A stretch of DNA of 64,000 bases from contig JAKIVR010000003.1 in assembly GCA_022750455.1 (NCBI GenBank), positions 4,457 to 68,456 on the forward strand. The letters run 5' to 3'. The translations under genes and the position numbers were made by a program. Numbering within the stretch: the stretch's first letter is position 1; every line of letters starts with the position of its first letter. Below the pieces are notes generated by a model. The model did no database searches. It was not told the DNA's origin and saw nothing but the letters and a program-made list of their open reading frames with translations. Below, one piece after another: positions 5,314 to 61,857 of this stretch. This stretch comes from Thermoplasmata archaeon (GTDB taxonomy: Archaea > Thermoplasmatota > Thermoplasmata > Lutacidiplasmatales > UBA184).

Positions 5314-8300
5314 ATGAGTGGAGACCCTAACGAACCGACAACGCCGGCCCCCCGTCGAACGATCACTGGCACCGCGGCCCCCGCGGCCGCTGTGCCCGCA
5401 GGCGCCGCGGCTCCCACTCCCGCCCCTGTGGCTCCGGCGACACCCGCTCCCGCGCCAGCGCCGGCCAAACCCGCGACACCGTCGTTGCCCCGGCCTCCGG
5501 TGAAGGCCGGAACTCCGGCAACGCCGGGTCTTCCGGCCAAGCCCCGCCCCGCGGCGGCTCCCGCCGGGGTCAAGCCGAAGGGAACTTCGGCTCCGCTCGC
5601 CACCCAGCCGCGCCGCCCGACGACGCCCGCCCGTCCGCGGGGCGCGTCGCCGCCGGCCCGTCGCCCTCCCCAGGGCGGCATGTCGCTCGGAGGATTCGTC
5701 CCGCCCCGCGGCACCATGGGACACCGGACCGGTCTCGTCCTGCTCGTCGCCGGGATCATCCTGCTCGGCTCGGGGGTCGGACTGTACTTCACCTTCTACC
5801 CGGTCATCGCCAACACCCAGACCGCCGCCGGGTTCCTCTCGACCTCGAACGCGCAGCTGTTCACCAACGACCCGGGCGTGAAGGCCGTCCACCTGACCAG
5901 CTCGAGTGAGAAGGTCGGGGCCTCGGTCTACATCCTCGATACGGTAAGCTCCGTCCAGTACAACGCCTCGGCCGGCGTCACCTTACTGACATTCCAATCG
6001 ATCTCGAACGAACCGACGAACGAACGGGCGACGCAGTCGTCGTTGGCCCAGCTGCTGTTCGGAACGTTCTCCGGTTCGATCTCATGGCTCAAATCCGGCG
6101 AGCAGATCCTGATGACGTTCACGATCGTCCAGGCCCAGCTCCCCGGCGGGGTCTACACCTCCCAGCCGTACCTCACTCTCGATGCGGCGGCCGACGCCAC
6201 GCACGCCTCGCTCTCCCCGGGCGGACCGACGGGGCTCGCGTCCCCGGCGATCGGGCAGCAGTACATCCAGCCCGGCTTCAACGTCGACTATCAAGGTCTC
6301 TTCATCTTCCTCGCCATCGTCGGCGGCCTGATCGTCCTCGGCGAGCTGTTCTTCGCGGGCGGCCTCGAGCGGTGGATTCGTAGTCAGACGAAGGACCCCC
6401 AGAACCTCGTCGTCGGCCTGATGGGCGCCATGACGGCGTTCGCGGGCTTCTTCATGCCGTTCTATCCGTGGCCGTACGTCCTCTTGTTCGTCGCCGGCAT
6501 CATGGCCGTCGCGTGGAAGTTCCCCCAGCTCTCCCTCGTGATGTTGTGTCTGATCGTCGTGCCGGAAGTGGCGTACCAGAGCGGCGCGCTCGGCCTCATC
6601 TTCCTGGTCGCGCTCATCCCGATCCTGTACGCGGGGCTCGTGGACTGGAGGTTCGGCTTCGGCGCCCTCCTCACCCTGTTCCTCGCACCGGTCGGACTGT
6701 CGTTCGCCGTGCCGATCTTCATGGCGCTGATCTTCTCCTTGTATCTCGGCCTCGCGGTCGCGGTCGCGGGCGGACTGCTCATCACGATCTTCGTCACGCT
6801 CGGGAACCTCCCGATGTTCGGGTACCTGGTGGGACCGGGCGCCTCGTCGAACCCGTCCCTGGTGGCCGGGCATTCGGCGGCGTTACTCCCGGCGCTCCCG
6901 TGGACGTTCTTCTCGCTCGGCTCCGTCGGGGCCGCCTACAGCAATCTCTTCAGCCCGAACTTCACGGTCCTGGCGGCCGGCTGGGGTGGGCTCGGATCCA
7001 TCGCGATCCCGCTGGCGGAGATTGGCTCGTGGTGCTTCGCGGCTTGGCTGATCGCGACGCAGCTCCACGACCGCGAGAAGCAGTCCCAGGAGAACCTGCT
7101 GCGGACCTCGTTCGCAGGCGGAGCGGTCGTCGCGGCCGTCGCCCTCGTCGGCTTCGCCTCGTTCAACTACATCCAGTGGCCGATGCTCGTCGTGCTCCTC
7201 TTCCTGCCCGCGATGGTCGCGGTCGCGGCCGGAGCTCTCGTCGTGCGCGACACGTTCGAGGCGTACTTCACGAGCCGCATGGGAGCGACCAGCGTCGGAA
7301 CACGCGTCGCCGAGATGAAAGGCCTCCAGAAGGTCACGTTCGAGATGGTCGGGGGTCTCCACGATGTCAAGGCCGACATCAAGGAGTCGATGATCATCCC
7401 GCTGATGCGGAAGGATATCACCACCCGGTTCCGACTGGAGCCGCCGAAGGGGTTGCTGCTGTTCGGACCGCCCGGGTGCGGCAAGACGATGCTCATGAAG
7501 GCGCTCGCGAGCGAGCTCGGGGTCGAGATGATCTCGATCAAGTGCTCGGACGTCATGAGCAAATGGTACGGCGAGTCGGAGAACAAGATCGCGGACCTCT
7601 TGCGCACCGCGCGCGAGCGAGCGCCGTGCATCCTGTTCATGGATGAAATCGACTCGATCGCCAAGCGCCGGGACATGTACACGGCGGACGATGTGACGCC
7701 GCGCCTTCTCTCGATCCTACTCTCGGAGATGGACGGGATCGAGAAGTCCGCGGGAGTCATCGTCGTCGGGTCCACGAACAAGCCCGACCTGATCGACCCG
7801 GCGCTGATGCGTCCGGGCCGTCTCGACAAGATCATCTACGTCCCGCCGCCCGACTTCAATGAGCGGATGGAGGTCGTCCACGTGCACATGCAGGGACGGC
7901 CGGTCTCGGGCGAGATCGACCTCGCTGAGATCGCGAAGAAGACCGAGCGGTTCTCCGGAGCCGACCTGGCGAACCTGGTGCGGGAAGCCGCCACCATCGC
8001 CGTCCGGCGCGAGATGATGAAGCAGGACGCGAGCGGCTCCATGACCATGGAGGACTTCCAGCAGGTCATTGGCCGGATCAAGCCGTCGATCTCGCTGCGG
8101 ATGCTCACCGACTACGAGACGATGAAGATGGACTATGAGCGCAAGATGCACCAGGTCCAGCGGATGGAACGCAAGGTCGTCGTCCACTGGGACGACGTCG
8201 GCGGTCTCACCGACATCAAGTCGGCGATCCGGGAGTACGTCGAGCTCCCGCTCACTCGCCCGGAGCTGATGGAGAGCTACAAGATCAAGACCGGTCGGGG

Positions 8301-9126
8301 CATCCTGCTCTTCGGACCCCCGGGATGCGGCAAGACGCACATCATGCGCGCGGCGGCGAACGAGCTGAACGTGCCGATGCAGATCGTCAACGGCCCCGAG
8401 CTCGTAAGCGCCCTCGCGGGACAGTCGGAAGCGGCCGTCCGGGACGTGCTGTACCGGGCCCGGGAGAACGCGCCGAGCATCGTCTTCTTCGATGAGATCG
8501 ATGCGTTGGCGTCGAAGGACTCGATGCGCACGCCCGAGGTGTCGCGCGCCGTGAGCCAGTTCCTGACGGAGATGGACGGCCTTCGCCCGAAGGACAAGGT
8601 CATCATCATCGCCACCACGAACCGTCCGCAGACCCTCGATCCGGCGCTGCTCCGTCCGGGCCGGTTCGACAAGATCTTCTACGTGCCGCCGCCCGACCTC
8701 GCGGCCCGCCAGGACATCTTCCGGATCCACCTGAAGGGAGTCCCGGTGGATGGCGCGGTCGATTTCGGCGTGCTCGCGCAGAACTCCGAAGGGTACTCGG
8801 GCGCGGACATCGCAGGTGCCGTCGACGAGGCGAAGCTGATCGCGTTGCGCTCGCAGCTGGTCCTCGAGACCGGCGCGCCGACCCCGGTCGGGGGACCCGC
8901 CGGTGGTCTCTTCGCGGCCGGCACCGCACGCGCCAGCCAACCGCAGCACGTCTTCGGCATGGGAGATCCGACCGGTCTGAACCAGGCCGCGGCCCCCGAG
9001 GCGGACGTCGCGGGGGTGCGCATGCAGGACCTGACCGCCGCGATCGCCAAGCAGAAGCCGAGCATCACGCCCGAAACGCTCGCGTGGGCCCAGGAGTTCA
9101 TCAAGTCGTATGGAACCCGGGGATGA
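5314..9126 (+). CDS. polytopic membrane protein fused to tandem AAA+ ATPase domains (Cdc48/VAT-type D1-D2)
   Basis: SD-like AGAGGAG 7 nt upstream of the ATG. Pro/Ala-rich N-terminal ~125 aa. About 10 hydrophobic helices between aa ~135 and 650. Two Walker A GPPGCGKT (nt ~7465-7488 and ~8314-8337). Walker B ILFMDEID / IVFFDEID. SRH-like GSTNKPDLIDPALMRPGRLDKIIYVPPPD / ATTNRPQTLDPALLRPGRFDKIFYVPPPD. Confidence 0.85.
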   Translation: MSGDPNEPTTPAPRRTITGTAAPAAAVPAGAAAPTPAPVAPATPAPAPAPAKPATPSLPRPPVKAGTPATPGLPAKPRPAAAPAGVKPKGTSAPLATQPRRPTTPARPRGASPPARRPPQGGMSLGGFVPPRGTMGHRTGLVLLVAGIILLGSGVGLYFTFYPVIANTQTAAGFLSTSNAQLFTNDPGVKAVHLTSSSEKVGASVYILDTVSSVQYNASAGVTLLTFQSISNEPTNERATQSSLAQLLFGTFSGSISWLKSGEQILMTFTIVQAQLPGGVYTSQPYLTLDAAADATHASLSPGGPTGLASPAIGQQYIQPGFNVDYQGLFIFLAIVGGLIVLGELFFAGGLERWIRSQTKDPQNLVVGLMGAMTAFAGFFMPFYPWPYVLLFVAGIMAVAWKFPQLSLVMLCLIVVPEVAYQSGALGLIFLVALIPILYAGLVDWRFGFGALLTLFLAPVGLSFAVPIFMALIFSLYLGLAVAVAGGLLITIFVTLGNLPMFGYLVGPGASSNPSLVAGHSAALLPALPWTFFSLGSVGAAYSNLFSPNFTVLAAGWGGLGSIAIPLAEIGSWCFAAWLIATQLHDREKQSQENLLRTSFAGGAVVAAVALVGFASFNYIQWPMLVVLLFLPAMVAVAAGALVVRDTFEAYFTSRMGATSVGTRVAEMKGLQKVTFEMVGGLHDVKADIKESMIIPLMRKDITTRFRLEPPKGLLLFGPPGCGKTMLMKALASELGVEMISIKCSDVMSKWYGESENKIADLLRTARERAPCILFMDEIDSIAKRRDMYTADDVTPRLLSILLSEMDGIEKSAGVIVVGSTNKPDLIDPALMRPGRLDKIIYVPPPDFNERMEVVHVHMQGRPVSGEIDLAEIAKKTERFSGADLANLVREAATIAVRREMMKQDASGSMTMEDFQQVIGRIKPSISLRMLTDYETMKMDYERKMHQVQRMERKVVVHWDDVGGLTDIKSAIREYVELPLTRPELMESYKIKTGRGILLFGPPGCGKTHIMRAAANELNVPMQIVNGPELVSALAGQSEAAVRDVLYRARENAPSIVFFDEIDALASKDSMRTPEVSRAVSQFLTEMDGLRPKDKVIIIATTNRPQTLDPALLRPGRFDKIFYVPPPDLAARQDIFRIHLKGVPVDGAVDFGVLAQNSEGYSGADIAGAVDEAKLIALRSQLVLETGAPTPVGGPAGGLFAAGTARASQPQHVFGMGDPTGLNQAAAPEADVAGVRMQDLTAAIAKQKPSITPETLAWAQEFIKSYGTRG

Positions 9127-9508
9127 GCTCGTCCGACCGACAGAGGGCGGGCGCCCCCGCCCATCGGACCGGCCGTCGCGGGACAAGATCTCCTCCGTCG
9201 GCCTCCCTCCTCGAGTCGACCCGGACGACCTCCCCGTCCCCCGGACGGAAGACCCGGCGTTCTGGCTGGCGGTCCTCATCGGGGCCGCGACGGTGTTCGC
9301 GGTCGGCGTCTACATGCCGTTCCGGTACGGGTACCCGTGGGAGTACCTCGCGTTCCCGTTCACCATCGCGGGCGGCGCGGTCGGCTCGATCGCCATCTCC
9401 CGCTGGCAGCTGCTCCGGCGCAGCCGCGCCCAGGAAGGCCGGGAGGAGCGGCTCGCCCAGCTCCCGAGCTTCGAGGTGTACACCCCCCCGAAGCCTCCCT
9501 CCTCCTGA
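9110..9508 (+). CDS. small membrane protein (2 predicted TM helices)
   Basis: Overlaps the stop of the AAA gene by 17 nt. Helices AFWLAVLIGAATVFAVGV and LAFPFTIAGGAVGSIAI. The N-terminal 50 aa are Pro/Arg-rich, so the true start may lie downstream. Confidence 0.4.
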   Translation: MEPGDELVRPTEGGRPRPSDRPSRDKISSVGLPPRVDPDDLPVPRTEDPAFWLAVLIGAATVFAVGVYMPFRYGYPWEYLAFPFTIAGGAVGSIAISRWQLLRRSRAQEGREERLAQLPSFEVYTPPKPPSS

Positions 9509-17334: not shown

Positions 17335-17633
17335 CCGGTGGAAGCCCTCTTCGAGGGCGACGGTTCAACCCCTTCCTACCTTTCTTTCCTTCTCTTCTCT
17401 GGGACCGAGCGTGGGCGGAGTCCGAACGTCCCCGGAGCGTTCGCGCCGTCGAGGTTTGCGCGCCGTGGACCGGAGACGACGAGGCCCGCGGCAAAAGTAG
17501 ATATGGCTCGGTCCATTCGACGTTCTTGGCCGGAGGACTTTTCCGGCGCTGTCCATGGAAGGGGAAGGCACCGACCGGCCGCGTTTGGAGAAGCTTCCCG
17601 ACACGGCGAGAATGAGTCCCGGTTCCACCGGGT
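17335..17633. other. candidate replication-origin region: inverted copies of CCGGTGGAA (ORB-core-like) flanking a pyrimidine-rich tract and the orc1 start
   Basis: CCGGTGGAAG at 17335-17344 (plus orientation). CCGGTGGAAC on the minus strand at 17621-17633. Polypyrimidine tract CCTTCCTACCTTTCTTTCCTTCTCTTCTCT at ~17379-17408. Confidence 0.3.
17493..17504 (+). promoter_or_regulatory. TATA-like element (AAAAGTAGATAT) upstream of orc1
   Basis: AT-rich dodecamer ~50 nt upstream of ATG 17555, in a 220-nt intergenic region. Confidence 0.35.
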
Positions 17634-18973: not shown

Positions 18974-20602
18974 GTGGGACGGGCATCGTCGGGAGCTGGG
19001 TGGGGAGCTACGAGGAGTCGCTCTCGGACCCTGACCGCGCTGTCGATCGCGCTCGTCCTGGTCCTCGTGGTCGGTCTCGGTCTCCCATCCAGTGGTGGGG
19101 ACCGCTCGGTTCGATCGGGGAGCTCCCCCTCCACCTTCTCGGAAGTTCACGCGGAGAGTTCGACCTTGGCCGCTCGCTTCGTCCCTTCCTCGTGGACGGG
19201 GAAGGGCCCTTCTAACACCGTCCCGGTGGCCTCTTCACCGGAATCCCGAACCAACGTGCAGCCAACCGTGGAGCTCCGACCGACCTTCGGGGTTCGAACG
19301 CATAGTGGTCCGTTGGCGATCCTGCTGACCGCCAGCGCGTTGAACGATGACATCGGCCACAGCTTCCACGTGACCGCCCTGGTCTCGGGCGGGACCGGGC
19401 CGTACAACTACACCTGGTCGGACAACGCCTCGGGGTTCCTCTTGGCGAACGTGTCGTATGCCTCCACCTACGTCGACTCGCCGTACATCGACGGTCCGAA
19501 TGTGGTTTCGGTCGTCGTGCGCGACACGGCCGACGCGAACATCAGCTCCAACGTGACCGTGTACGTCTCGCCACCCCTCGATGCAGCCCCCTACTACCTC
19601 GGGCCCGGAGGGATCGAAGTGTTCTCGCCGCTATACACCGACGTGGGACAGAGCCTCACGTTCTATCCAAATCTCTTCGGCGGCTTGCCCCCGTACACGT
19701 ACCTCTGGACGTTCGGGGACCCGACGGGACCGTTGACCACCCCGAACGGGACCCACGTCTACAACGCGCCGGGTAACTACACGGTCCGACTCCAAGTGAC
19801 GGACTGGACCGGGGCGACGATCAACGCGACGACCGAAGTCTTCGCGAACGCGACGCCCACCGGGCGTCTCGGGTTCCCTTCGGCGACCGACTCCGGGGTC
19901 GCCGAGGAGTTCAAGCTCGCCGCGCTGAACGGGACCCCCCCATTCCTCTACACGCTCCAGTTCGGTGACGGCAACAGCTCGTCGGGCACGATCGGACTGG
20001 GCCGAACCGCCCCGCTCGTGGTCCACCCGTACTACCTGACCGGCGTGCTGACGGTCCGATTGACCCTCGAGGACGCGGTCGGGTCGTTCCTGAACCAGTC
20101 GTGGGAGATCTCGATCGCGCCCCCCCCCTCGGTGACCAGCATCGGGCCTCCGGGGCCGCTCCAACCCGGCGACTCCGCCCCGTTCCTCGTGAACGTGACC
20201 GGGGGGACCCAACCGTTCCGATATCTCTGGTCGTTCGGCGACGGCGCGGACGGCACCGGCCCCTCCGTCACCCACAGCTATCTGACGGCGGGCTCGTACA
20301 ATGTCGTCGTCAGCGTCACGGACGCTGCCAACTACACCGCCGTCGGATACGTCCTCGTCGTGGTCAACCCGACCCCCGCGCCGAACGCGGGGCTCATCGG
20401 GGCCGCCGAGACGGCCGTTCCCGCGTTCCTCGTCGGCCTCGTGGCCGGGATGTTGATCATGGTCCTCGAGGCCCGCTCCCGCCAGCGGCGGCAGCACCCC
20501 GAGACCCCGGAACCCGTGAAGGAAGATCCGTTCCGGATCGGGCCCCCGAGGTCACCGCCGGCGCTCGAGGCCGGACCCGACGAGACTCCCCCCCTCGAAT
20601 AG
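18974..20602 (+). CDS. surface protein with four PKD domains and C-terminal TM anchor
   Basis: N-terminal helix LTALSIALVLVLVVGLGL. PKD signatures YNYTWSDN, YTYLWTFGDPTG...GNYTVRLQVTD, LYTLQFGDGNSS, FRYLWSFGDGADG...GSYNVVVSVTD. C-terminal helix LVGLVAGMLIMVL plus tail. Confidence 0.75.
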   Translation: MGRASSGAGWGATRSRSRTLTALSIALVLVLVVGLGLPSSGGDRSVRSGSSPSTFSEVHAESSTLAARFVPSSWTGKGPSNTVPVASSPESRTNVQPTVELRPTFGVRTHSGPLAILLTASALNDDIGHSFHVTALVSGGTGPYNYTWSDNASGFLLANVSYASTYVDSPYIDGPNVVSVVVRDTADANISSNVTVYVSPPLDAAPYYLGPGGIEVFSPLYTDVGQSLTFYPNLFGGLPPYTYLWTFGDPTGPLTTPNGTHVYNAPGNYTVRLQVTDWTGATINATTEVFANATPTGRLGFPSATDSGVAEEFKLAALNGTPPFLYTLQFGDGNSSSGTIGLGRTAPLVVHPYYLTGVLTVRLTLEDAVGSFLNQSWEISIAPPPSVTSIGPPGPLQPGDSAPFLVNVTGGTQPFRYLWSFGDGADGTGPSVTHSYLTAGSYNVVVSVTDAANYTAVGYVLVVVNPTPAPNAGLIGAAETAVPAFLVGLVAGMLIMVLEARSRQRRQHPETPEPVKEDPFRIGPPRSPPALEAGPDETPPLE

Positions 20603-42864: not shown

Positions 42865-43608
42865 TTACGACCGATCCGAGTTCGGCCCGAACGGAGAGTC
42901 GGACTGGCCCTTCTCTTGGAACGGCACCCACTCGCCGCTCGTGGTCGAGAAGTCGACACGCTCTAGCTCGACCTCGAACTCCTTCAGCATCCCCGACGAC
43001 GCAGGGCGGACCGAGAACCGGTAGACGTAGATCCCGAATCCCATGAAGTTCGCCACGCGGGTGAGCACCTCTCCGAGGTGTTCCCGCGGCACCCGGACGC
43101 GGATGAGGTTCTCTCCGAGCTGTTGGGCGAACTCGTCGACGTCGAAAGGCCGCTCCAGGCTCAGGAGGCTCGTGGGAGCCGGAGGGGTGGCCGGGTCCGC
43201 TGGCTCCGGGGGGGCCGACGCGATCTCGATCGGGGCGGCCACCGAGGGGGGGTTGGGCGCCAGGTCGAGTGGGGGGCTCTCGGGCGCGGGGGGCGCCGGT
43301 GGGGGAGAGGAGGGAAGTTCGGGCGCGACGGGGGCGTTCATCTCCTTGGGGGGATAGTGATCCCGTACGGGGGACGCGTCCCGACCGACGAACTTCGGGG
43401 TCGCCTTCGCGGGGGGAGCGGGCGATCGGCGCGCGGGGGCGGCCGCGCGGGACGGCGCCTTCCGTGACGACCTCGACTTCGGACGGGGCTTCGGCTTCGG
43501 GGTGGGCTTCGACCGGACCGGGGCCGCGCGCTTCGGTTTCCCGGCGGGCTTACGGGACGTTCGGGGAGGGCGCGAGACCGGCTTTCGCTTCTTCGGACGG
43601 GAAACCAT
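42865..43608 (-). CDS. highly basic K/R/P-rich protein with C-terminal globular domain (candidate nucleic-acid-binding protein)
   Basis: N-terminal MVSRPKKRKPVSRPPRTSRKPAGKPKRAAPVRSKPTPKPKPRPKSRSSRK. Pro-rich linker. C-terminal ~100-aa mixed alpha/beta-looking domain. No homolog recognised. Confidence 0.6.
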   Translation of the reverse strand: MVSRPKKRKPVSRPPRTSRKPAGKPKRAAPVRSKPTPKPKPRPKSRSSRKAPSRAAAPARRSPAPPAKATPKFVGRDASPVRDHYPPKEMNAPVAPELPSSPPPAPPAPESPPLDLAPNPPSVAAPIEIASAPPEPADPATPPAPTSLLSLERPFDVDEFAQQLGENLIRVRVPREHLGEVLTRVANFMGFGIYVYRFSVRPASSGMLKEFEVELERVDFSTTSGEWVPFQEKGQSDSPFGPNSDRS

Positions 43609-52678: not shown

Positions 52679-53302
52679 GTGCGTCGCTTCCTGCTGTTGG
52701 CCCACCGAGTGCCGGTCGACGGTGCGTTCACCCTGAACGACCTCGCCGGGGGCGGGGGCCGGATGGACGAGATCGCTCGTTGTGTCTCGACAGCGTTCAC
52801 CATATCGAACGACCTCCGTCGCGACACGGAGCTCACGGTCCTCTTCGGATCCGAGCCCCCGCCCCGGAGCCGCCGGATCGACATCTACGGAGCGCGCCTG
52901 CGGCTGCTGAACCCGGACGAGCGGTCGACGGCCGCGCTGCTCAAGAACGCGCTCATCCGCTCGCACAACGTCCCCGGGATCGTGGAATCCTCTCCGGGGA
53001 TGGTCGTGGGACCTTCCCAACCGCTCGAGGACCTGGCCCGGTTCGCCTCGCAGCCCGGCTGCTGGTGGCTCGTGGAAGGAGGGGCTCCTCTGGCCTCCCT
53101 CGCTCCGACATCGGACGTCGCCGCGGTCCTGAGCGATCCGACCGACCCGACCCCGCCGGAACGCGAGATCCTGGAGAGATCTGGCGCAGTCTCCATCCGT
53201 GTCGGGCCGAGATCGCTCCGCAGTTCCCAAGTCCTCGACGTTGTCCAGAACGTCCTCGACGGCGCCTCCGAGGCAGTTCCCGTCGACCGGACGCCCCGCT
53301 AG
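52679..53302 (+). CDS. trmY: tRNA (pseudouridine54-N1)-methyltransferase TrmY (SPOUT, DUF358)
   Basis: MRRFLLLAH...FTLNDLAGGGGRMDEIARCVSTAF...RRD...VLFGSEPPP...PDER matches the TrmY pattern F.L.DL.G..GR.D...RCVS.AF...RRD. 207 aa. Confidence 0.7.
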   Translation: MRRFLLLAHRVPVDGAFTLNDLAGGGGRMDEIARCVSTAFTISNDLRRDTELTVLFGSEPPPRSRRIDIYGARLRLLNPDERSTAALLKNALIRSHNVPGIVESSPGMVVGPSQPLEDLARFASQPGCWWLVEGGAPLASLAPTSDVAAVLSDPTDPTPPEREILERSGAVSIRVGPRSLRSSQVLDVVQNVLDGASEAVPVDRTPR

Positions 53303-54324
53303 AGCAGGAGGGGCGTGTTGTCCTCGGCCTTCCCTTGGAGGGCGTCCCGGACGGAGCTCGGTCGGAGTCCCCCGACGACGGCCGTGAGCCGAACGACCTC
53401 CCGACGCTCCGGATGGGTTCGATTGCCGACGAGCATCCGACGGGGCTCCCCGAGCCGGGACCGCATCGATCGCCAGATGCGGTCGACGGTCTCGAGGGTG
53501 AGGTTCGAGCCCCCGTCCACGTGCACGAGCGCCGACGGCCCGGCCGAGAGCTCGAAGTCGAGGAGGGTCTCCGTCAGCGCCTGGTCGACGAGCCGCTCCG
53601 GTTCCGAGATGTGCTCCTCGGCGCGGAGCAAGGTCGAGACCCCGGATTGCTCCAGATGGCCCCTCAGGCTCGCCAGGTCGACGTTCATCTGCGACGGGTG
53701 CTCGACCATGTCGACGAGCCCTTCGACGAGGCTGTGCATGTACGCGTTCCGGACGTGCAGCACCCGAGGGACGGGGAGGGAGGCGAACCGCTGCAGCTTC
53801 TGGTTGGAGACCGCGAGGAGGAGCCCCCCCATCTCTTCGAGCTCCTGGAGCGCCGCGAGCGCGTTCTCCCGACGGTTCGGGTTCGTCTCCATCTCGATGT
53901 GGAACGGGAGGATCGCGATCGGCACGGCGAGAACGTCGTGATCCCTCAGAGCCGAGGTGAGGTACGGGAGGAGGGCGGAGCCCGTGCCCCCTCCCAGGGC
54001 GGCGATCAGAAAGACGATGTCATGAGGGACCAGGAGCGGCACCACGTCGTCGTGGGCTTCCGCCATGCCCGCATGGACGGCGTCCCGATCCCCTCCGCTG
54101 CCGTGGCCCCGAAGCGTCCGCTGGCCGAGAAGGATCCGTTCCGCCACGTCGAGGCCTCTGAGGTGCCGGGCGTCCGTATTGATCGCGACCGCCTTGACCG
54201 ACGGGGAGAGTCCGAATCCCATCAGGTCGTGGACGGCGTCGCAGCCGGCGCCCCCGAGCCCTACGACGGCGAAGCCGCCCGAATGACCGTAAGGCGCCCA
54301 CGACGGGAGCGGTTCCCCTTTCAT
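53299..54324 (-). CDS. tubulin/FtsZ-family GTPase, CetZ-like
   Basis: VVGLGGAGCDAV (G-box 1). AINTDARHLRGLD. LLGQRTLRGHGSGGD (CetZ-type GHGxGxD rather than FtsZ GLGAG). ALGGGTGSA (tubulin signature GGGTGS). Start ATG 54324 (MKGEPLPS...). Confidence 0.7.
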   Translation of the reverse strand: MKGEPLPSWAPYGHSGGFAVVGLGGAGCDAVHDLMGFGLSPSVKAVAINTDARHLRGLDVAERILLGQRTLRGHGSGGDRDAVHAGMAEAHDDVVPLLVPHDIVFLIAALGGGTGSALLPYLTSALRDHDVLAVPIAILPFHIEMETNPNRRENALAALQELEEMGGLLLAVSNQKLQRFASLPVPRVLHVRNAYMHSLVEGLVDMVEHPSQMNVDLASLRGHLEQSGVSTLLRAEEHISEPERLVDQALTETLLDFELSAGPSALVHVDGGSNLTLETVDRIWRSMRSRLGEPRRMLVGNRTHPERREVVRLTAVVGGLRPSSVRDALQGKAEDNTPLLL

Positions 54325-54340
54325 GGCGCCGTCTCCCGGG

Positions 54341-54703
54341 TTACGGGGAGGAGGTCCCTTCGTCGGCGGTGAGCGACTCGCCATCTCGGCGGCCCCGGGG
54401 CGCGCTGACGGCTTCGGTCTTGACACGGATGTACTCGCGGACAGCGGAGCGAACGGCGTCGTCGATCGAGACCGAGGCGCCTTCCCGCACGAACTCCTCG
54501 AGCTGGCGATTGTCCTGCCGGGAGAGGTCGACGACGACCTTCTTGATGTTCGGGGGGGGGAGGTTCATCTCGATGAACTTCTCGAGTCCTTCCCGGATCG
54601 TGTCCGAGATCGTCGGGGTGCCTTTCGACTGCTGGATCGCCTTCAGTTTCTCGAGGAGATCCTGCGGGATCCGAACCGTGACCCGCTCGGAAGTATCTGC
54701 CAT
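54341..54703 (-). CDS. ribbon-helix-helix (CopG/Arc/ParR-like) DNA-binding protein with two tandem RHH motifs
   Basis: First RHH: ERVTVRIPQDLLEKLKAI...ISDTIREGLEKFI. Second RHH: KKVVVDLSRQDNRQLEEFV...SIDDAVRSAVREYI. 17 nt upstream of the CetZ-like gene on the same strand. Confidence 0.75.
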   Translation of the reverse strand: MADTSERVTVRIPQDLLEKLKAIQQSKGTPTISDTIREGLEKFIEMNLPPPNIKKVVVDLSRQDNRQLEEFVREGASVSIDDAVRSAVREYIRVKTEAVSAPRGRRDGESLTADEGTSSP

Positions 54704-55023: not shown

Positions 55024-58000
55024 ATGAGCGTCACATACGGTCTAGTTCCGTCCCGAGCGAACCCACGGCCAGTCCGCAACTCCGTCCGGGGGAAATCTGC
55101 CGCCATACTGATCGGCCTCGTGCTCGTGGGCACTCTGTTCGCGGGAGCCCTATCGAATGCGACTGCCGGCCGATCGATTGAGGTCCGAGTCTCCCCGGGA
55201 GGGGTGCCGTCAGCTCCCCCCAGTTCGCAAGCCAACGCCCGGCCTGTCCCCGCGTCGGGCGGCGTCGGTTCGGTGATCGCGACGCTCGACCTGGCCACGA
55301 ACCACCTCTTGCCGGGGAACCAGGCGCCCCCGGTCCAAGCCGGCCCCGAGATGGTGCTGTACGACGCCTCGAACGGCAACCTGTACGTGCGTGGGACCGA
55401 CGGCTCGACCATCAGTGTCGTGAACGCCTCGACCGACAAGGTACTGACCAGTCTCACCGTCGGGTTCGGCGGGAGCGCTTACGTTCCCAACGTCGCAACG
55501 ATCGCCGACGACCTGACCAACGGCAACCTCTACGAAGTGAATCCGATGCTCGAAACGGTGGGGGTCATCCAAACCTCCACGAACACGCTAACCACCACGA
55601 TCAATGTCCACGCCGGCGTCGAGGCGATCGTATTCGACCCGTCGAACGGGAACCTCTACACGACCAACTGGTACAGCGACAACGTCTCAGTGATCTCGGG
55701 AACCACCAACAAGGTCGTCGCCAGCATCCCCGTGGGAGGGGAGCCGGGCGCGATCTTGTACGACCCGAACGACACGGAAGTGTTCGTGTCGAACTTCCAC
55801 ACAGGCAACGTCTCCGTGATCAATACCACCACCGAGAGCGTCGTGGCGAATCCGAGGACCGGGGTCACGGGATCGGAACCGGTCGCCCTGACGTTGGACA
55901 CCGACGATGACCTGGTCAACGTCGTCGACTCGCTCACCGACAACGTCTCCGTCATCAACGGGAGCACGAATGCCGCGATGACCTCCGTCGCCGTGGGGTC
56001 GATTCCCACCTCTGCCACGTACGTGCCCTCCACGGACACGCTCCTGGTGGCGGACGGCGCCTCGGACAATGTCACGGTCATCCAGGAGCCCCAGGACAAG
56101 ACCATCGCGAGCATCGGGATCGGGCACGGAGCGCAGGGGGCCGCGTACGACCCGTCGAGCGGGTACGTCTACTTCGCAACGTACGGCGCCAACAATGTCA
56201 GCATCGTCAACCCGGCCACTAACGCCTGGGAGGCGGGCGTGGCCACGAGCAACTTCCCGGAGGACCTCGCCGTGGACACGAACAATGGCAACGTCTACGT
56301 CGCCAACCTGGGGACCGACGAGGTAGATTCGAACCTCACCGTCATCTCGGGATCGACCTCACTGCCGATCGCCTCCGTCCTCTTGGAGGCGTACCCGACC
56401 AGCCTGACCGCGGCCCCCAACGGCGACCTCTACGTGTCCGACTATGGCGGAGATCGCGCCGACATCATCTCGGAGTCGACGAACCTTGAGACCGGGATCG
56501 CCCCGGCGGCATCCCCGCAGCCGGGCGATTCGGCGTTCGATCCCGCCACGGACGACCTGTACCTGGTGAGCGGGCCGACGGGCGAGGTCAACGTGGACAA
56601 CGCAACGGGAGCTGTGGTGGCGACCCTCGGGCTCGGTTTCGATTCCCAGGGCGCCGTCTATGATCCGTCGAACGAACTGGTCTACGTTTCCAATTACTAC
56701 AGCGGGAACATCACGCTGATCTACGGATCCAACGAGACCGTCGACACGGTGATCGAAGTCGAACCGTTCGACAGCCTTGGCGCCGAGATCTTCGATCCCG
56801 TGGACTCCGCGGTGTACGTCGCGGACTACAACGAGCACAACGTGACCGTGGTCCACGGGTCGGCCACGACCGGCTCGATCCAGGTCGGAACCTACCCGAC
56901 GTCGTTTGCCTACGACCCGGTGAACGACACGATCTTTGTCGCCAACTACGGGTCGAACAACATCAGCGTCATCAACGCCTCGACCAACCAGGTGGTGGGG
57001 GCGATCTCGGGGTACTACCCCGAATACCTCGCGTACGACTCGGGCACGAACTCACTGTACGTGTCGACGGGGGAGAACGGACTGGTCGACGCGTTCAACG
57101 CGACGACGTACGCCCCCCTAGGGCCCGGGCTGGACATCTCGTCCTCGGTCCGATCCGGCGGCATCGCCTACAACGCCAGCTCGGGCGACCTGTACGTCTC
57201 GAACGAGTACGAAAGCTCCATCGCGATCATCTCGGACGTGAACGTGACCGATTACCCGGTCACTTTCTTCGAGAGCGGCCTCCCCGCGGGGACCTCCTGG
57301 AGTGTCACGTTGGCGGGCTATACCAATGAGTCGGTCGTCCCAGCGATCGAACTCGGCGGGGTCGGAGTCGGATTCGCCGAGCCAAACGGGACGTACCCGT
57401 TCACCGTGGGAGACGTTCCGGGCTACACCTCGAACCCCATCGGGGGGAATATGCATGTCGCGGGCGCTCCGGTCAACACGACGATCGTATTCTCCTCTCC
57501 TTCATCGGCTCCGAGCTATCCGGTCTGGTTCAATGAGACGGGACTCCCTCTCTCGACCTTCTGGGAGGTGACATTGGATTCGTCGGAGATGTCCACGGAC
57601 ACCCCCTCGATCCCGTTCTCCGAAGAGAACGGAAGCTACTCGTTCACCATCGGAGCGGTCACCGGGTATACTTCGAACCGTACCTCGGGTCCCCTGGACG
57701 TCTCCGGCGCACCCGTCACCGTGGACGTTGGCTTCACGTCCGTCGCCGCGTCGTACTCCGTCACGTTCCGAGAGACCGGGTTGCCCTCGTCCACCTCGTG
57801 GAGCGTCACATTGAGCGGTCAACTGGAGAGTTCGACGACGACATCGATCCCTTTCACCGAGGGGAACGGATCGCTCCCGTTCACGGTCGGCGCGGTCACC
57901 GGTTACTCCGCCACTCCCGGCGCGGGGTCCGTGCTCGTCCACGGCGCGGCGGCGACCGAGAACATCACTTTCGCCCTGACGCAGGTACCTCCCTTGACCG

Positions 58001-58437
58001 TCGGTCTGTCAGGAACTCCCGCCTCATTCGGGATCGGCGGCTCGACGACGTTGACCACGACGGCGACCGGGGGGACCGCTCCGTACGGCTACTCGTACTC
58101 GGGGCTCCCGGCCGGGTGTGCCTCGACCGCCTCCAGTTTTGTGTGTACCCCGACCTCGACAGGAGAATTCAACGTGACCGTGACCGTCACGGACGCGTCC
58201 TCGCGGACCGCTCACGCAAGCACGACCGTGACGGTCGAATCCCTCGGCTCGACGGTCCCCACGACCGTCGCCTCGAGCTCCACGAACTACGGCCTCTGGA
58301 TCGCCATCGCCGTTCTCGTCGCCATCGGAGCGATGCTGTTCTTCTTCATCGTCTACCGCCGCCACCGCCGGAAGGAGGAGGAGGCCGCTTCGGCCGCGCG
58401 CGCCGCGTCGCTCACTCCCCCCCCACCGCCCCCCTAG
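55024..58437 (+). CDS. surface protein with YVTN-type beta-propeller repeats, four GLPxxTSWxVTL repeat modules, Ig/PKD-like domain and C-terminal TM
   Basis: N-terminal helix AAILIGLVLVGTLFAGAL. Repeated GNLYVxxxxSDNVSVI-like ~40-aa units (YVTN family). Four modules with the signatures VTFFESGLPAGTSWSVTLAG, VWFNETGLPLSTFWEVTLDS and VTFRETGLPSSTSWSVTLSG. C-terminal helix GLWIAIAVLVAIGAMLFFFIV plus tail RRHRRKEEE...PPPPPP. SD-like GGAGG 6 nt upstream. Confidence 0.8.
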   Translation: MSVTYGLVPSRANPRPVRNSVRGKSAAILIGLVLVGTLFAGALSNATAGRSIEVRVSPGGVPSAPPSSQANARPVPASGGVGSVIATLDLATNHLLPGNQAPPVQAGPEMVLYDASNGNLYVRGTDGSTISVVNASTDKVLTSLTVGFGGSAYVPNVATIADDLTNGNLYEVNPMLETVGVIQTSTNTLTTTINVHAGVEAIVFDPSNGNLYTTNWYSDNVSVISGTTNKVVASIPVGGEPGAILYDPNDTEVFVSNFHTGNVSVINTTTESVVANPRTGVTGSEPVALTLDTDDDLVNVVDSLTDNVSVINGSTNAAMTSVAVGSIPTSATYVPSTDTLLVADGASDNVTVIQEPQDKTIASIGIGHGAQGAAYDPSSGYVYFATYGANNVSIVNPATNAWEAGVATSNFPEDLAVDTNNGNVYVANLGTDEVDSNLTVISGSTSLPIASVLLEAYPTSLTAAPNGDLYVSDYGGDRADIISESTNLETGIAPAASPQPGDSAFDPATDDLYLVSGPTGEVNVDNATGAVVATLGLGFDSQGAVYDPSNELVYVSNYYSGNITLIYGSNETVDTVIEVEPFDSLGAEIFDPVDSAVYVADYNEHNVTVVHGSATTGSIQVGTYPTSFAYDPVNDTIFVANYGSNNISVINASTNQVVGAISGYYPEYLAYDSGTNSLYVSTGENGLVDAFNATTYAPLGPGLDISSSVRSGGIAYNASSGDLYVSNEYESSIAIISDVNVTDYPVTFFESGLPAGTSWSVTLAGYTNESVVPAIELGGVGVGFAEPNGTYPFTVGDVPGYTSNPIGGNMHVAGAPVNTTIVFSSPSSAPSYPVWFNETGLPLSTFWEVTLDSSEMSTDTPSIPFSEENGSYSFTIGAVTGYTSNRTSGPLDVSGAPVTVDVGFTSVAASYSVTFRETGLPSSTSWSVTLSGQLESSTTTSIPFTEGNGSLPFTVGAVTGYSATPGAGSVLVHGAAATENITFALTQVPPLTVGLSGTPASFGIGGSTTLTTTATGGTAPYGYSYSGLPAGCASTASSFVCTPTSTGEFNVTVTVTDASSRTAHASTTVTVESLGSTVPTTVASSSTNYGLWIAIAVLVAIGAMLFFFIVYRRHRRKEEEAASAARAASLTPPPPPP

Positions 58438-58515: not shown

Positions 58516-58782
58516 CTAGGAGCGACGGGGAATGTCGATCGGAGGGATCTCGCTCAGGATCTCCCTTCGCATGAGTTCGTGGAGCTTGTCCCGAGCCGCC
58601 TCCAGTTTGTCCAACTGGTCTGCGTAGGCGTCCTTGGCCGCGCGGACGCGCTCCGCGTCCGCCGGGGCCTTCGACTTCTGAAACTGATCTTCGGCCTCAT
58701 GGACGCGTTGGAGAAACACCCGAAGATCCTCTTCGATCGCCTCCGCGTCCTCGCGGGCCGTTTCGACCTCCTCGCGCGTCAT
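58516..58782 (-). CDS. small acidic coiled-coil protein (88 aa), speculative
   Basis: ATG 58782 (MTREEVETAREDAEAIEEDLRVFLQRVHEAEDQF...). No homolog recognised. Lies in an otherwise 460-nt intergenic gap. Confidence 0.3.
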   Translation of the reverse strand: MTREEVETAREDAEAIEEDLRVFLQRVHEAEDQFQKSKAPADAERVRAAKDAYADQLDKLEAARDKLHELMRREILSEIPPIDIPRRS

Positions 58783-58897
58783 TCGGCCGCCCACTGTCGC
58801 CAAGGGTAATAGGGCTGACCTAGACGGGACCGGGCCGTCCGGATCGCCTCGGCGGCAGGCCTATCTACTAGGAGGGAATCGCCGACATCTGAGCACC

Positions 58898-60313
58898 ATG
58901 ACGGAGCAATCTCTATCGGCCGCAACGCCCCCCGGCCCGGCCGGAACCCCGATGCCCCCTCCCAGCGGAATGCCTCCCCCGGCCGGGTACGCCCCGCCGG
59001 GAACGGATCCCAATCAACCGCCCACGAACTGGTCGCAGCCACCCACCGGCCAATGGGGTGGCGCGCCCCCTCCCAAGAAGGGGATGCTCTCCGGCAAGAT
59101 GCTGTACGTTGTCATCGCGGTCATCGCCATCGTGGTGATTGTGGTCCTCGCCGCCGTCCTGCTCTCCGGCGTCGCATCGAACAACAACAACTCGAACTCC
59201 TCCTCGGCCCAAGCGAGCACCTACTCGAAGGCCTCCAGCCAAGCGAGTTCGTACGCGGCGAGCTACCCTGGGGGCCCCTGGAAGCCTTGGATCGCCGGGG
59301 GCGTCACGACCAACACGGCGGGCACGTCCCCGCCCATCAATTCGAGCGAATTTGATTCGTTCCCCTCGTCCGCTGGCTGCTCCGTCCACCTGCTCGTGGC
59401 GAGCGGGACCACCTACACGGTCCCGGCCATCTCCGGGAACTTGAGCTCCGGCGCGTCCCCCTACTGGGTCTTCTGGTTCCTCAACGCCTCGGGGATCCTG
59501 TTCGTGACCGATTCCGGCGGGACCATCACTCCCCTGCTAACGATCGACTGTGCCTCGTTCAGCACCTTTTCGAGCTTCATCACCCCGATCCCCTCGACGG
59601 TCATTGACAGCAGCGCCGCGGTGCAGACGGCGTGGGGAGCCGGCGGGGCGGCGTTCACGACCAAGAATCCGGACTCGACGGTCTCCATGCTCCTGACGGG
59701 CGGCGAGAGCATCGATGGATTCTCGGTCGCCCCGAGCTGGACCATCACCTACCAGGCGTGCAACCCGACGACCGCCAGCACGGCGCAGGTGGCGACCTTC
59801 ACGGCCGACATCAACGCCTCGGCTTCTACCAAGAACCTCATCTCGGCCTCCAACTCCACGGGGGCTTGCACGGCGAACGCCGATATCTCGGGCGGCGGGG
59901 GCGGTCTCGGTGGGGGCGGCAGCACCACCACGACGCTCTCCTCGGAGCTCGGGTTCGGGACCCCGGCCGTGGGGACCCCACCGTCCGCGGGGACCTATGC
60001 GTACACCATTTCGATCACCGATGCATCGGGCGGCCTGACCTGGGGGAGCCTATTGGCCACGGTCGACACCTCGGCCGGGGGGACGTACGTCTACGTCGGG
60101 AACGGGAACCTGACGGTCGATAACATCCTCGGGACCGCCGTCGCGGTGTTCAACTTGAGCACCGATAGTTGGACCTTGGGATCGACCGTCTCGATCTCGA
60201 CGACGCAGAGCTTGGTACTGTACTCCGGGATCCAGAACATCTCGGGGGACACGCTGTCGTTCATCTCCGAATCGACGAGCCCCTCGGGTTCCGTGTACGT
60301 CAACAACCTGTAG
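58898..60313 (+). CDS. type-II membrane glycoprotein with Pro-rich cytoplasmic N-tail
   Basis: N-terminal ~65 aa P-rich (PPGPAGTPMPPPSGMPPPAGYAPPGT...). Single helix MLYVVIAVIAIVVIVVLAAVLL. S/N-rich stalk. Ectodomain with many N-x-S/T sequons. Confidence 0.7.
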   Translation: MTEQSLSAATPPGPAGTPMPPPSGMPPPAGYAPPGTDPNQPPTNWSQPPTGQWGGAPPPKKGMLSGKMLYVVIAVIAIVVIVVLAAVLLSGVASNNNNSNSSSAQASTYSKASSQASSYAASYPGGPWKPWIAGGVTTNTAGTSPPINSSEFDSFPSSAGCSVHLLVASGTTYTVPAISGNLSSGASPYWVFWFLNASGILFVTDSGGTITPLLTIDCASFSTFSSFITPIPSTVIDSSAAVQTAWGAGGAAFTTKNPDSTVSMLLTGGESIDGFSVAPSWTITYQACNPTTASTAQVATFTADINASASTKNLISASNSTGACTANADISGGGGGLGGGGSTTTTLSSELGFGTPAVGTPPSAGTYAYTISITDASGGLTWGSLLATVDTSAGGTYVYVGNGNLTVDNILGTAVAVFNLSTDSWTLGSTVSISTTQSLVLYSGIQNISGDTLSFISESTSPSGSVYVNNL

Positions 60314-60378
60314 GCGGGTTCCCCGCGCTCTCGGACCCACGCCACCCGGCCGTTGGGGCCACGCCGTCGCCGTAGAAA

Positions 60379-61857
60379 GTGTCCTCGAGCCGGAGCGCCA
60401 CTCCCCCGAACCCTCCCGGGACAAGCTTCGGTGACACGCGTATCTACTCGACAGGCCTCCAAGGGGTTGGTGTGAACGTGAGCTCGCCCGACCCGACCGC
60501 ATCGAACGTGCCGGGCCCCGAGGGTCCCCCCGGGCCTCCTCCGGCTTGGGGTCCGGCTGCACCCGGCGCGCCGCCACCTGCCGGTCCGTGGGGGGCTGCC
60601 CCGGCCCAGCCGCCCCGGCGGAGGTGGGGAATCGCGGTCGGCGCGATCGTGGTCGTTGTCGTGGTGATCCTCGCGGTGCTCTTGCTTGCCGGGGCGTTCT
60701 CCTCCAACAAGTCCAACGGTACCATCGCCGACCCAACGTTCTCCCAAGCGGCCGATGCCGTGAAAGAGTGGGCGGCGAATTACGACGGCGGAGGCTGGAA
60801 GACGTTCGTCGCCAGTGGCCTGGATTCATCCGTGGCCACCATCTCTCCACCCATCAATGGCAGTACGCTCTCCGGGCTCACCAAGAGCGAATCCTGCATG
60901 GACAACATCCTGATCCCGTCCGGGAGCACCGTGACCCTGCCCGCGTACTCCGGAAACGTGAGCTCGGGAGAGTCCCCGATCTGGGTGTTCGTGATGTTCA
61001 ACTCCAGCGCCACGTTCCTGGCCGTGGAGGACAACAGTGGCACCATCACCCCGCTAGCGACGATCGCCTGCTCGGAGCTCGCGTTGGTCGCGGCGATTCT
61101 CTCCCCGATCCCTTCCAACGTCATCGATAGCAGCGCGGCCGCCACGACCGCCTGGGACTCCGGGGGCCGGGCCTTTGCCGCTCTGAACCCGAACGCGACG
61201 GTGGAGATGGGCCTCGTCTCCGGCCTCAGTCTGCTCGGAACCACCACGTACCCGATATGGACGGTGACGTACCAAGCGTGCAATCCGAGCTCGGTCACGA
61301 CCTCCCCGGTCGCCACCTTCACCGCGGAGGTCAACGCCACCCTGTCGAGCCAGAACCTGATCTCCGCCAACAACACCACGTCGGCGTGCGGAGTGGTCCC
61401 GGAGCTATCGAGCAGCGGACTCGGAGGCATCGGGGGGATCGGCGGAGTGGGAGGGAACGGCGGAACGATCCCGCTGAGCTCGGACATTAGCTTCGGGACC
61501 CCGCTTCCGGCCGTCTCGAGTACCGGGCAGTACTCCTACACCCTGCTCGTGACGAGCGCGATGACGAGCGCGTCGGCGGTCGTCGACTGGGACGAGCTCG
61601 CTCCGCTCCTGGAGTACTCGAATGGAACTCTGATCTTCCTTCCGACAGGCAATCTGACCGTCGACAACGTCTACGGCGTCGCCAGTGCCGTGTACAATTT
61701 CTCGGGGTTCGGTTGGGATCCGGGGGCGTATCTTCCGATCACGACCAGCCAAGAACTCGTTGTCAACTCCGGAACCATGGACATGTCCGGGGATCGTTTG
61801 GTGCTCGAATCGCTCGCGTTCGGCGTCACGGGGAATGTGACGATCCCCGACCTCTAA
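60379..61857 (+). CDS. type-II membrane glycoprotein, paralog of the upstream gene
   Basis: Same architecture: P-rich tail, helix WGIAVGAIVVVVVVILAVLLLAGAF, glycosylated ectodomain. Shared blocks SGTITPLATIACS / GGTITPLLTIDCAS, PIPSNVIDSSAA / PIPSTVIDSSAA, WTVTYQACNPS / WTITYQACNPT, GNLTVDN. Start may be an internal GTG. Confidence 0.7.
   Translation: MSSSRSATPPNPPGTSFGDTRIYSTGLQGVGVNVSSPDPTASNVPGPEGPPGPPPAWGPAAPGAPPPAGPWGAAPAQPPRRRWGIAVGAIVVVVVVILAVLLLAGAFSSNKSNGTIADPTFSQAADAVKEWAANYDGGGWKTFVASGLDSSVATISPPINGSTLSGLTKSESCMDNILIPSGSTVTLPAYSGNVSSGESPIWVFVMFNSSATFLAVEDNSGTITPLATIACSELALVAAILSPIPSNVIDSSAAATTAWDSGGRAFAALNPNATVEMGLVSGLSLLGTTTYPIWTVTYQACNPSSVTTSPVATFTAEVNATLSSQNLISANNTTSACGVVPELSSSGLGGIGGIGGVGGNGGTIPLSSDISFGTPLPAVSSTGQYSYTLLVTSAMTSASAVVDWDELAPLLEYSNGTLIFLPTGNLTVDNVYGVASAVYNFSGFGWDPGAYLPITTSQELVVNSGTMDMSGDRLVLESLAFGVTGNVTIPDL

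Follow-up and report, generated by a model that had tools for sequence, protein, structure and literature searches.

A tandem pair of putative type-II membrane glycoproteins with proline-rich N-terminal tails from a Thermoplasmata archaeon

The tandem gene pair described here lies in a 64,000-nucleotide stretch of DNA, hereafter the window, from a Thermoplasmata archaeon of the order Lutacidiplasmatales (UBA184; GenBank assembly GCA_022750455.1, contig JAKIVR010000003.1, positions 4,457 to 68,456 of the forward strand). The GC content is 64-72% along the whole length of the window and 67% overall. Near its end, two adjacent genes, gene 1 (58898-60313) and gene 2 (60478-61857), encode paralogous proteins in which a proline-rich N-terminal tail is followed by a single hydrophobic helix and a large ectodomain rich in N-glycosylation sequons. 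A sequence-only reading of this DNA had described the two products as type-II membrane glycoproteins of an unassigned family, and had linked their tails to that of a membrane AAA+ protein encoded elsewhere in the window. Here, the gene pair, the architecture and predicted topology of its products, the family to which they belong and the proposed link to the AAA+ protein are examined, and the possible roles of these proteins are discussed.

The tandem genes and their start sites

Alignment of the two products by BLASTP revealed 43% identity and 62% positives over 390 aa (E 2e-87), extending from directly after the hydrophobic segment to the final residue. Both open reading frames (ORFs) are on the + strand, and the description of the pair as tandem paralogues with homologous ectodomains was thereby borne out; the conserved blocks quoted for them, GTITPL, PIPS(T/N)VIDSSAA, WT(I/V)TYQACNP and GNLTVDN, all fall within this alignment.

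Gene 1 (58898..60313, +) encodes a protein of 471 aa. The GenBank call for this gene, L3K03_01105, is 18 codons shorter (58952), and the start at 58898 is backed by the peptide MT(E/D)Q(S/N)LSAA.PPGP, which is conserved among the orthologues on L002 and L008, two related metagenome contigs. The longest ORF of gene 2 (60379-61857, 492 aa) had been taken as the gene in the earlier reading; this start was not upheld, as the ORF over-extends by 33 codons. The most likely start is the GTG at 60478, which gives a predicted protein of 459 aa (60478..61857, +), and the 5' extension of the ORF (60379..60477, +), which holds the gene-2 promoter box, is probably untranslated. In GenBank, gene 2 is represented by a call of 402 aa, L3K03_01110, that begins inside the transmembrane (TM) helix.

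The TATA-box-like element of gene 1, GCCTATCTACTAGG (58859..58872, +), ends 28 nt before the ATG at 58898, and that of gene 2, GCGTATCTACTCGA (60438..60451, +), ends 28 nt before the GTG at 60478. The octamer TATCTACT occurs in three copies in the window, compared with 0.12 expected; the second copy (60441-60448) lies within the 5' end of the 60379 ORF and ends 29 nt before the GTG, with 28 intervening bases. The box GC(G/C)TATCTACT is found 28 nt before the start codon in five genes, namely gene 1, gene 2, both L002 genes and the L008 gene, and the starts behind the same-spaced box in the L002 and L008 orthologues are ATG, TTG and ATG. A family-specific regulatory site was considered for the extended box and rejected, because comparable AT-rich boxes are present 35-47 nt upstream of other gene starts in the window; for the same reason the box is most simply a TATA element. 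The mRNAs of gene 1 and gene 2 are probably leaderless or near-leaderless, each presumably transcribed from its own TATA-like box. The third exact copy of the octamer (17496-17503, -) is intergenic, upstream of the gene at 17555, and could represent a TATA box in reverse orientation or have arisen by chance.

Domain architecture and membrane topology

The two proteins share one order of parts: a Pro-rich tail, a Lys/Arg cluster, a signal-anchor helix of 24-25 residues, a Ser/Asn stalk, an alpha/beta domain of ~218 aa, a Gly-rich hinge and an all-beta domain of ~128 aa. In gene 1, the putative cytoplasmic tail (aa 1-67; 58898..59098, +) contains 29% Pro, ends in KKGMLSGK and is predicted to be disordered. 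It is followed by the signal-anchor helix (aa 68-92; 59099..59173, +), which has a Kyte-Doolittle 19-residue mean of 3.69 and is 88% identical to that of the L002 orthologue, and by an Asn/Ser-rich stalk with two sequons (aa 93-108; 59174..59221, +). The alpha/beta ectodomain (aa 109-326; 59222..59875, +) carries Cys161, Cys218, Cys288 and Cys324 together with the signature P-S-x-V-I-D-S-S-x-A-A. The Gly-rich hinge (aa 327-343; 59876..59926, +) then leads to the C-terminal all-beta domain (aa 344-471; 59927..60310, +). In gene 2, the Pro-rich tail (aa 1-49; 60478..60624, +) ends in PPRRR and precedes a signal-anchor helix recognised by hydropathy (aa 50-73; 60625..60696, +). The alpha/beta ectodomain of this protein (aa 86-305; 60733..61392, +) has its cysteines at positions 140, 198, 268 and 304, and a Gly-rich hinge (61393..61467, +) separates it from the C-terminal all-beta domain (aa 331-459; 61468..61854, +).

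The order of tail, helix, stalk and ectodomain given in the earlier reading was retained, and two of its lengths were corrected: the gene-2 tail is ~49 aa instead of ~85-95 aa, and the ectodomains comprise about 365-380 aa instead of ~330 aa. In a hydropathy and composition analysis of the 40 putative genes in the window, each paralogue showed one very hydrophobic segment (Kyte-Doolittle 3.5-3.7) behind an N-terminal region with 26-29% Pro, and 10 sequons were counted outside the membrane in gene 1 and 13 in gene 2. Based on the alignment and on this hydropathy and sequon analysis, the layout is real and far from chance.

The orientation in the membrane was assessed over 81 family members with tails of at least 20 aa. 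Within 14 aa of the helix, Lys and Arg number 2.75 on average on the N-terminal side and 0.41 on the C-terminal side, and the N-terminal side had the higher count in 80 of the 81 members and the lower count in none. Sequons are similarly partitioned, with 0.15 per 100 aa in the tails vs 2.20 in the ectodomains; the predicted cytoplasmic proteins of the window contain seven sequons in about 7,760 residues, or ~0.09 per 100 aa. The charge bias and the sequon partition together agree with the type-II assignment made earlier, as well as with the description of the ectodomains as sequon-rich, and an N-in/C-out topology is strongly supported as a prediction for the whole family. In these proteins the membrane-spanning segment follows an N-terminal region that is not a signal sequence, the positive charges lie on the inner side, and the sequons and the four conserved cysteines are C-terminal to the helix, as in a type-II anchor. 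A single signal-anchor helix without a cleavable signal peptide, which had also been claimed, fits the hydrophobic runs of 25 and 24 residues after tails of 67 and 49 aa; across the family, the median uncharged apolar run is 24 residues, after tails of 20-97 aa. Sec signal peptides combine a short n-region with an h-region of 7-15 residues, whereas here the n-regions have 49-67 aa and the h-region ~24 residues. No C-terminal TM segment or sorting signal was found in either protein, their ends (...VYVNNL and ...VTIPDL) not being hydrophobic.

Predicted structure of the ectodomain

The ectodomain was modelled by AlphaFold2 with an alignment of 146 sequences, giving a mean predicted local distance difference test (pLDDT) score of 90.2, whereas an earlier model from a 5-sequence alignment (pLDDT 47) was not usable. 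In the model, residues 1-218 adopt a predicted alpha/beta arrangement, in which a helix and five strands are followed by a long helix and about four strands, with pLDDT mostly >90 in the gene 1 domain. The Gly run at residues 222-235 is disordered (pLDDT <50), and residues 236-363 are all-beta, with pLDDT ~95. In model numbering, C53, C180 and C216 are invariant in the family and C113 is conserved in >90% of members. The start of the long helix bears the family signature P-[SAG]-x-[VAI]-[IV]-D-S-[SPT]-x-A-[AV], and W173, F193 and N198-A199 are further conserved positions.

A Foldseek search against 350,542 PDB chains returned nothing at E <= 1e-3. The top matches were CD1 and major histocompatibility complex (MHC) class I structures, with TM-scores of 0.18-0.24, root-mean-square deviations of 18-20 A and E >= 4.6e-3; an MHC class I/CD1-like platform was rejected, as these TM-scores are below the ~0.5 needed. 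Weak matches to antibody heavy-chain variable domains (VH) and nanobodies were confined to the C-terminal module (probability 0.75-0.87, E >= 0.011, target-normalised TM-score 0.34-0.41), and this module may be an immunoglobulin (Ig)-like beta-sandwich, as judged from the model. The structure search against BFVD returned only noise, and a hidden Markov model (HMM) search against PDB sequences only TM-helix artefacts. When the halves of the alpha/beta domain were compared with each other and each with the C-terminal domain by hhalign, all probabilities were <1%, and no internal duplication was found.

The protein family and the age of the tandem pair

An exhaustive HMM search with the ectodomain alone identified 684 representatives at E <= 1e-3 and 383 at E <= 1e-10, each representing a cluster at 50% identity. 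Such a search was needed, as low-complexity and TM words dominated the word-indexed homologue searches, which returned only 4 and 9 members. A first scan of genome contigs with the pattern G[PG]W[KA]... found zero relatives, and two of the alignments were too diverse for a pattern; a narrower alignment led to three loci. The members with an organism label are all from metagenome-assembled genomes (MAGs) of Thermoplasmata or 'Methanobacteriota', and seven contigs with family genes have a GC content of 63-72%. Nearly all of the listed members open in the same way, with a tail, a basic cluster, one helix and a Ser/Gly-rich stretch.

None of the family members carries a functional name. A Pfam scan of 116 members yielded only TM-helix artefacts and NCBIfam no match; with the ectodomain likewise lacking a PDB match, the family is unassigned, as had been stated earlier. 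In addition, a tblastn search of phage genomes gave no match to the family, and a literature search found nothing relevant to it.

The ectodomain is charge-poor and rich in Ser, Thr, Gly and Ala, with 0.5% Lys and 1.2% Arg. Many family members end after the alpha/beta domain, and relatives contain 0, 1, 2 or 4 copies of the C-terminal module (two in P0004, four in P0132). One NCBI metagenome protein, P0062 (803 aa), has two copies of the alpha/beta ectodomain and several 'TYSVTFxETGLxxGTSWxV' repeats, and the C-terminal part of the YVTN propeller protein at 55024-58437 in the window is of the same repeat type. This points to a shuffling of domains between surface proteins in this group of archaea.

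The same tandem pair is present on L002, next to the same divergent upstream gene. The ectodomain identities are 53-58% for gene 1 vs gene 1 and 69-70% for gene 2 vs gene 2, compared with 38-44% for gene 1 vs gene 2. Since the identities within each copy exceed those between gene 1 and gene 2, the duplication predates the split between the window and L002 organisms. A distant MAG, L007, has an independent tandem pair of its own.

Translation and constraint of the proline-rich tails

The gene-1 tails of the window and L002 share 77% identity, with a ratio of non-synonymous to synonymous substitution rates (dN/dS) of 0.32, while the two ectodomains are 55% and 50% identical (dN/dS 0.31 and 0.53). 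In three orthologues the gene-1 tail reads M(T/N)(E/D/A)Q(S/N)LSAA.PPGP.G.P.PPP.GMPP.AGY...W.QP...W.GAPPPK, and the L008 orthologue keeps this peptide upstream of its database gene call, from which the tail had been dropped. Conservation is lower in the gene-2 tail, for which the same comparison gave 55% identity and an indel, but the segment GPW.APA.PPRRRWG is retained. On these comparisons the predicted tails are translated and under constraint. A trace of common descent is detectable between the tails of gene 1 and gene 2 (Smith-Waterman z 3.15; 0 of 500 shuffles).

The 81 family tails have a median length of 40 aa (range 20-97) and a Pro fraction of 0.26 +/- 0.08. Their Pro-richness is more than GC drift, because Pro (26%) exceeds Ala (14%) and Gly (9%). 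The motifs [YW]xPP and PPxx[YW] are ~2-fold over-represented (z 3.1 and 3.8), and such aromatic-Pro motifs occur in only 14 of the 81 tails.

Of 140 family gene calls, 46 have their start within or beside the TM helix, and most of these are probably truncated annotations, to judge from L008 and gene 2. An annotation problem is apparent here, in that gene callers systematically mis-start the genes of this family and drop the Pro-rich tails; both GenBank calls in the window are short.

Comparison with the membrane AAA+ protein

A putative membrane-embedded Cdc48-like unfoldase is encoded at 5314-9126 (+). It is a two-domain AAA+ protein of the CDC48 type with 1270 aa, of which the N-terminal ~660 aa form a polytopic membrane domain. 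Its parts follow in the order of a ~140-aa tail (26% Pro, 21% Ala), a TM helix, an outside loop of ~170 aa, further TM helices and two AAA domains; the Pro/Ala-rich opening with a TM helix before the ectoloop, as described in the earlier reading, was confirmed. Twenty-seven homologues were found in Thermoplasmata MAGs, one of them labelled Candidatus Lutacidiplasmatales. Where the gene call reaches that far, the homologues carry their own conserved basic tail rich in Pro, Ala, Thr and Lys; many of the database calls begin inside the first TM helix.

The basic Pro/Ala/Thr-rich tail of this protein (aa 1-140; 5314..5733, +), which is outside the glycoprotein family, was compared with the tails of the two paralogues. 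Smith-Waterman alignment gave z-scores of 0.96 and 0.14; of 500 shuffles, 92 and 219, respectively, scored as high as the real pair. Composition-adjusted BLAST gave E 0.21-5.4. The AAA+ tail contains 17 Lys and Arg but lacks Tyr and Trp. The paralogue tails, by comparison, are near-neutral and rich in Pro and Gly, and each has 3-5 Lys and Arg and 4 Tyr or Trp. Furthermore, 17 of the 40 putative window proteins have stretches of 40 aa with at least 20% Pro; soluble proteins and C-terminal tails are among these cases. The similarity is compositional only, and the proposal that a shared tail indicates a common cytoplasmic partner or targeting route was not sustained: by these comparisons, the 'shared tail' is a shared composition in a high-GC proteome and not a shared module, and Pro-richness is a property of each family separately. 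The tails of the paralogues and of the AAA+ protein probably matter, but separately, and a tempting but unsupported link between the pair and the membrane AAA+ ATPase is removed.

Proposed role and alternative explanations

With moderate confidence, we regard gene 1 and gene 2 as the products of an old tandem duplication within a large, still unnamed family of single-pass type-II surface glycoproteins of high-GC Thermoplasmata, with a proposed role in the surface coat or in adhesion. In such a protein, the signal-anchor helix of 24-25 residues would insert the polypeptide into the membrane, and the Lys/Arg cluster and the disordered, conserved Pro-rich tail would stay in the cytoplasm. Outside would follow, in order, the Ser/Asn/Gly stalk, the alpha/beta domain of ~218 aa, probably stabilised by two disulfides, the Gly hinge and the distal all-beta, putatively Ig-like, module. 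The whole outside part would be heavily N-glycosylated and almost without charged residues, and might serve as a component of the surface coat for contact, recognition or protection. The two paralogues could act together, and the tail is probably functional in its own right. A role in surface coat, adhesion or recognition fits the family, because the ectodomains evolve fast, the beta modules are variable in number, several paralogues exist and the composition is charge-poor.

Several observations weigh against this interpretation. No annotation of a family member points to any function. The tail conservation is based on three gene-1 and two gene-2 orthologues, and the sole conserved neighbour is a small coiled-coil gene found only in close relatives. 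Moreover, small-x-small residues are present after the helix, in the form of G-V-A|S in gene 1 and A-G-A|F in gene 2.

The small residues at positions -3 and -1 would be expected if the hydrophobic segment were a long cleaved signal peptide and the ectodomain were secreted or a loose S-layer-type subunit, and the many database calls that begin at the hydrophobic segment do resemble signal peptides. However, N-regions of 49-67 aa here and 20-97 aa in the family, together with an apolar run of ~24 residues, are atypical of Sec signal peptides, the truncated calls are start-site errors, purifying selection on the tail is hard to explain for a discarded leader, and no alternative C-terminal anchor exists; release by signal peptidase after the helix is unlikely, and the secreted form as a whole is improbable. 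It could also be supposed that the Pro-rich tails are untranslated extensions of high-GC ORFs and that translation begins at the TM helix; the 60379 ORF does open with 33 codons of this kind, and about a third of the family calls (46 of 140) start in or beside the helix. This supposition is very hard to reconcile with the promoter box, which in five genes precedes the tail-coding region at a constant distance, with the conserved tail peptide, which shows synonymous changes and a dN/dS of 0.14-0.32, and with L008, which encodes the conserved tail upstream of a truncated call. A surface filament built from archaeal type IV pilin-like proteins, with a class III signal peptide and a beta-sandwich, would share the N-terminal hydrophobic helix followed by beta-rich domains, and Pfam Pilin_N (PF07790) weakly matches the gene-1 TM helix (E 0.041; 15.2 bits vs a cut-off of 25.2). 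This match is below threshold and limited to the helix, gene 2 has none, and only 1 of 116 members matches, at E 0.027; the FlaFind-type motif [KRDE][GA][ALIFQMVED][ILMVTAS]3 is found at the helix boundary in 1 of 78 members and in neither window gene, and leaders of 20-97 aa are far longer than those of prepilins, which makes a pilin-like nature highly improbable.

A different identity for the alpha/beta ectodomain, as a PepSY- or cystatin-like domain in a membrane-tethered regulator or inhibitor of extracellular proteases, or in a sensor, is suggested by the predicted helix-then-antiparallel-sheet units and by the motif pair '..VIDSSxAAxxA...GGxAF' and 'FxAxVNAxxG', which we take to be reminiscent of PepSY-type domains. 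One family member matches Pfam PepSY (PF03413), but this is 1 of 116, its E of 0.077 is far below significance, and neither of the two paralogues matches; the PDB profile search was empty, Foldseek returned no PepSY or cystatin structure, and no protease gene was found as a conserved neighbour of the family genes. We therefore consider this identity unlikely. As for one shared module in the tails of the paralogues and the AAA+ protein, docking a common partner or using a common targeting route for envelope proteins, the N-terminal segment of all three proteins has a Pro content of at least 26% and leads into a TM helix that is flanked by basic residues on its N-terminal side, each tail is conserved within its own family, and the aromatic-Pro motifs are enriched in the glycoprotein tails. 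Against it stand the purely compositional similarity, the basic AAA+ tail without Tyr or Trp beside near-neutral paralogue tails, the small share of family tails with aromatic-Pro motifs and the Pro-rich segments of soluble window proteins, and we judge such a module quite improbable.

Compared with known systems, a membrane-anchored glycoprotein of archaea is of a familiar kind; what sets the present proteins apart is that they are anchored at the N-terminus, behind a conserved Pro-rich tail, and that their ectodomain is unassigned. S-layer glycoproteins of Haloferax and Halobacterium are examples of C-terminal TM anchoring. Proteins anchored at the C-terminus, to which six neighbours in the window belong, are likewise extracellular, very sequon-rich, charge-poor, rich in Ser, Thr and Gly and built from modular beta-domains; the cytoplasmic tails of the six-neighbour type are short and in some cases Pro-rich, as in 18974-20602 and 55024-58437, whose C-tails have 22% Pro. 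In contrast, the present family has an N-terminal type-II anchor without a signal peptide or a PGF-CTERM-like end, a membrane-proximal alpha/beta domain without Pfam or PDB relatives, and a conserved tail of 49-67 aa. Some single-pass membrane proteins of high-GC prokaryotes, such as the RskA/RsdA-type anti-sigma factors of actinobacteria and proteins of the divisome, also have a Pro/Ala/Gly-rich N-terminal segment, a basic cluster, a TM helix and an ectodomain. By description, the RskA/RsdA type resembles the present proteins in the disordered Pro-rich segment, the basic cluster, the one TM helix and the high-GC host, but our family has no folded cytoplasmic domain before the Pro-rich part, an unrelated ectodomain and no adjacent gene for a regulatory partner. 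PepSY membrane proteins share an N-terminal TM helix, helix-plus-antiparallel-sheet modules and a loosely similar 'V(N/D)AxxG' turn motif, and differ in that neither a significant sequence match nor a structural match links them to the family. Archaeal type IV pilins are similar in their hydrophobic N-terminal helix and beta-rich outside part, and different in the class III motif and the long leader, of which the family lacks the former and has the latter.

A bolder possibility, to which we attach little probability, is that the pair represents a new archaeal surface receptor, in which an undescribed disulfide-bonded alpha/beta fold would be coupled through one helix to a conserved Pro-rich tail of short linear motifs (in the gene-1 lineage, for instance, M..Q.LSAA.PPGP...PPP.GMPP.AGY). 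Through this tail a partner in the cytoplasm would be recruited, perhaps the conserved, divergently transcribed coiled-coil protein, and the two paralogues would form a heterodimer. If true, wall-less or thin-walled Thermoplasmata would possess a form of outside-in coupling that is analogous to that of type-II receptors in eukaryotes. To our knowledge, the envelopes of uncultured Thermoplasmata are almost unstudied. A family of at least 684 clusters at 50% identity, with a confident predicted structure and without a Pfam, NCBIfam or PDB relative, is a target for domain curation and for structural and cell-surface work.

Genomic neighbourhood

Gene 1 and gene 2 are the only family copies within the window. 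Divergent from gene 1 lies the gene of a highly charged coiled-coil protein of 88 aa (58516..58782, -). This protein has no Pfam family, and its counterparts on L002 (3-230, -) and L008 (3-227, -) are syntenic, with identities of 68-79%. Directly downstream of the pair are the genes of archaeal Pelota and RNA polymerase subunit D. Across the loci compared, no conserved operon partner of the family genes was found; elsewhere the gene is solitary amid unrelated housekeeping genes.

Six large sequon-rich proteins (542-1310 aa, with 14-32 sequons each) are encoded in the window between 1295 and 20602 and at 55024-58437 (+). They consist of an N-terminal signal or TM segment, a C-terminal TM helix and a short tail, and their Pfam domains include PKD, BNR, CarboxypepD_reg and the YVTN beta-propeller; for two of the six, 1295-3412 and 3358-5295, no Pfam match was obtained. 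The glycoprotein paralogues are thus part of a rich surface proteome, yet they are anchored in the opposite way to these six neighbours.

Other Pro-rich proteins of the window are mentioned here for completeness. The 132-aa protein at 9110-9508 (+; hypothetical protein L3K03_00890) shares 17 nt with the 3' end of the AAA+ gene. Its N-terminal region of 50 aa has 22% Pro and is followed by a TM segment and by a C-terminus that is likewise Pro-rich; the protein also occurs in a JGI metagenome. Two apparently soluble proteins, 42865-43608 (-) and 53299-54426 (-), have, from their predicted starts, long Pro-rich N-terminal regions with up to 40% Pro over 40 aa and 28% Pro, respectively, and the latter may be FtsZ/tubulin-like, judging from a GGGTGS motif alone.

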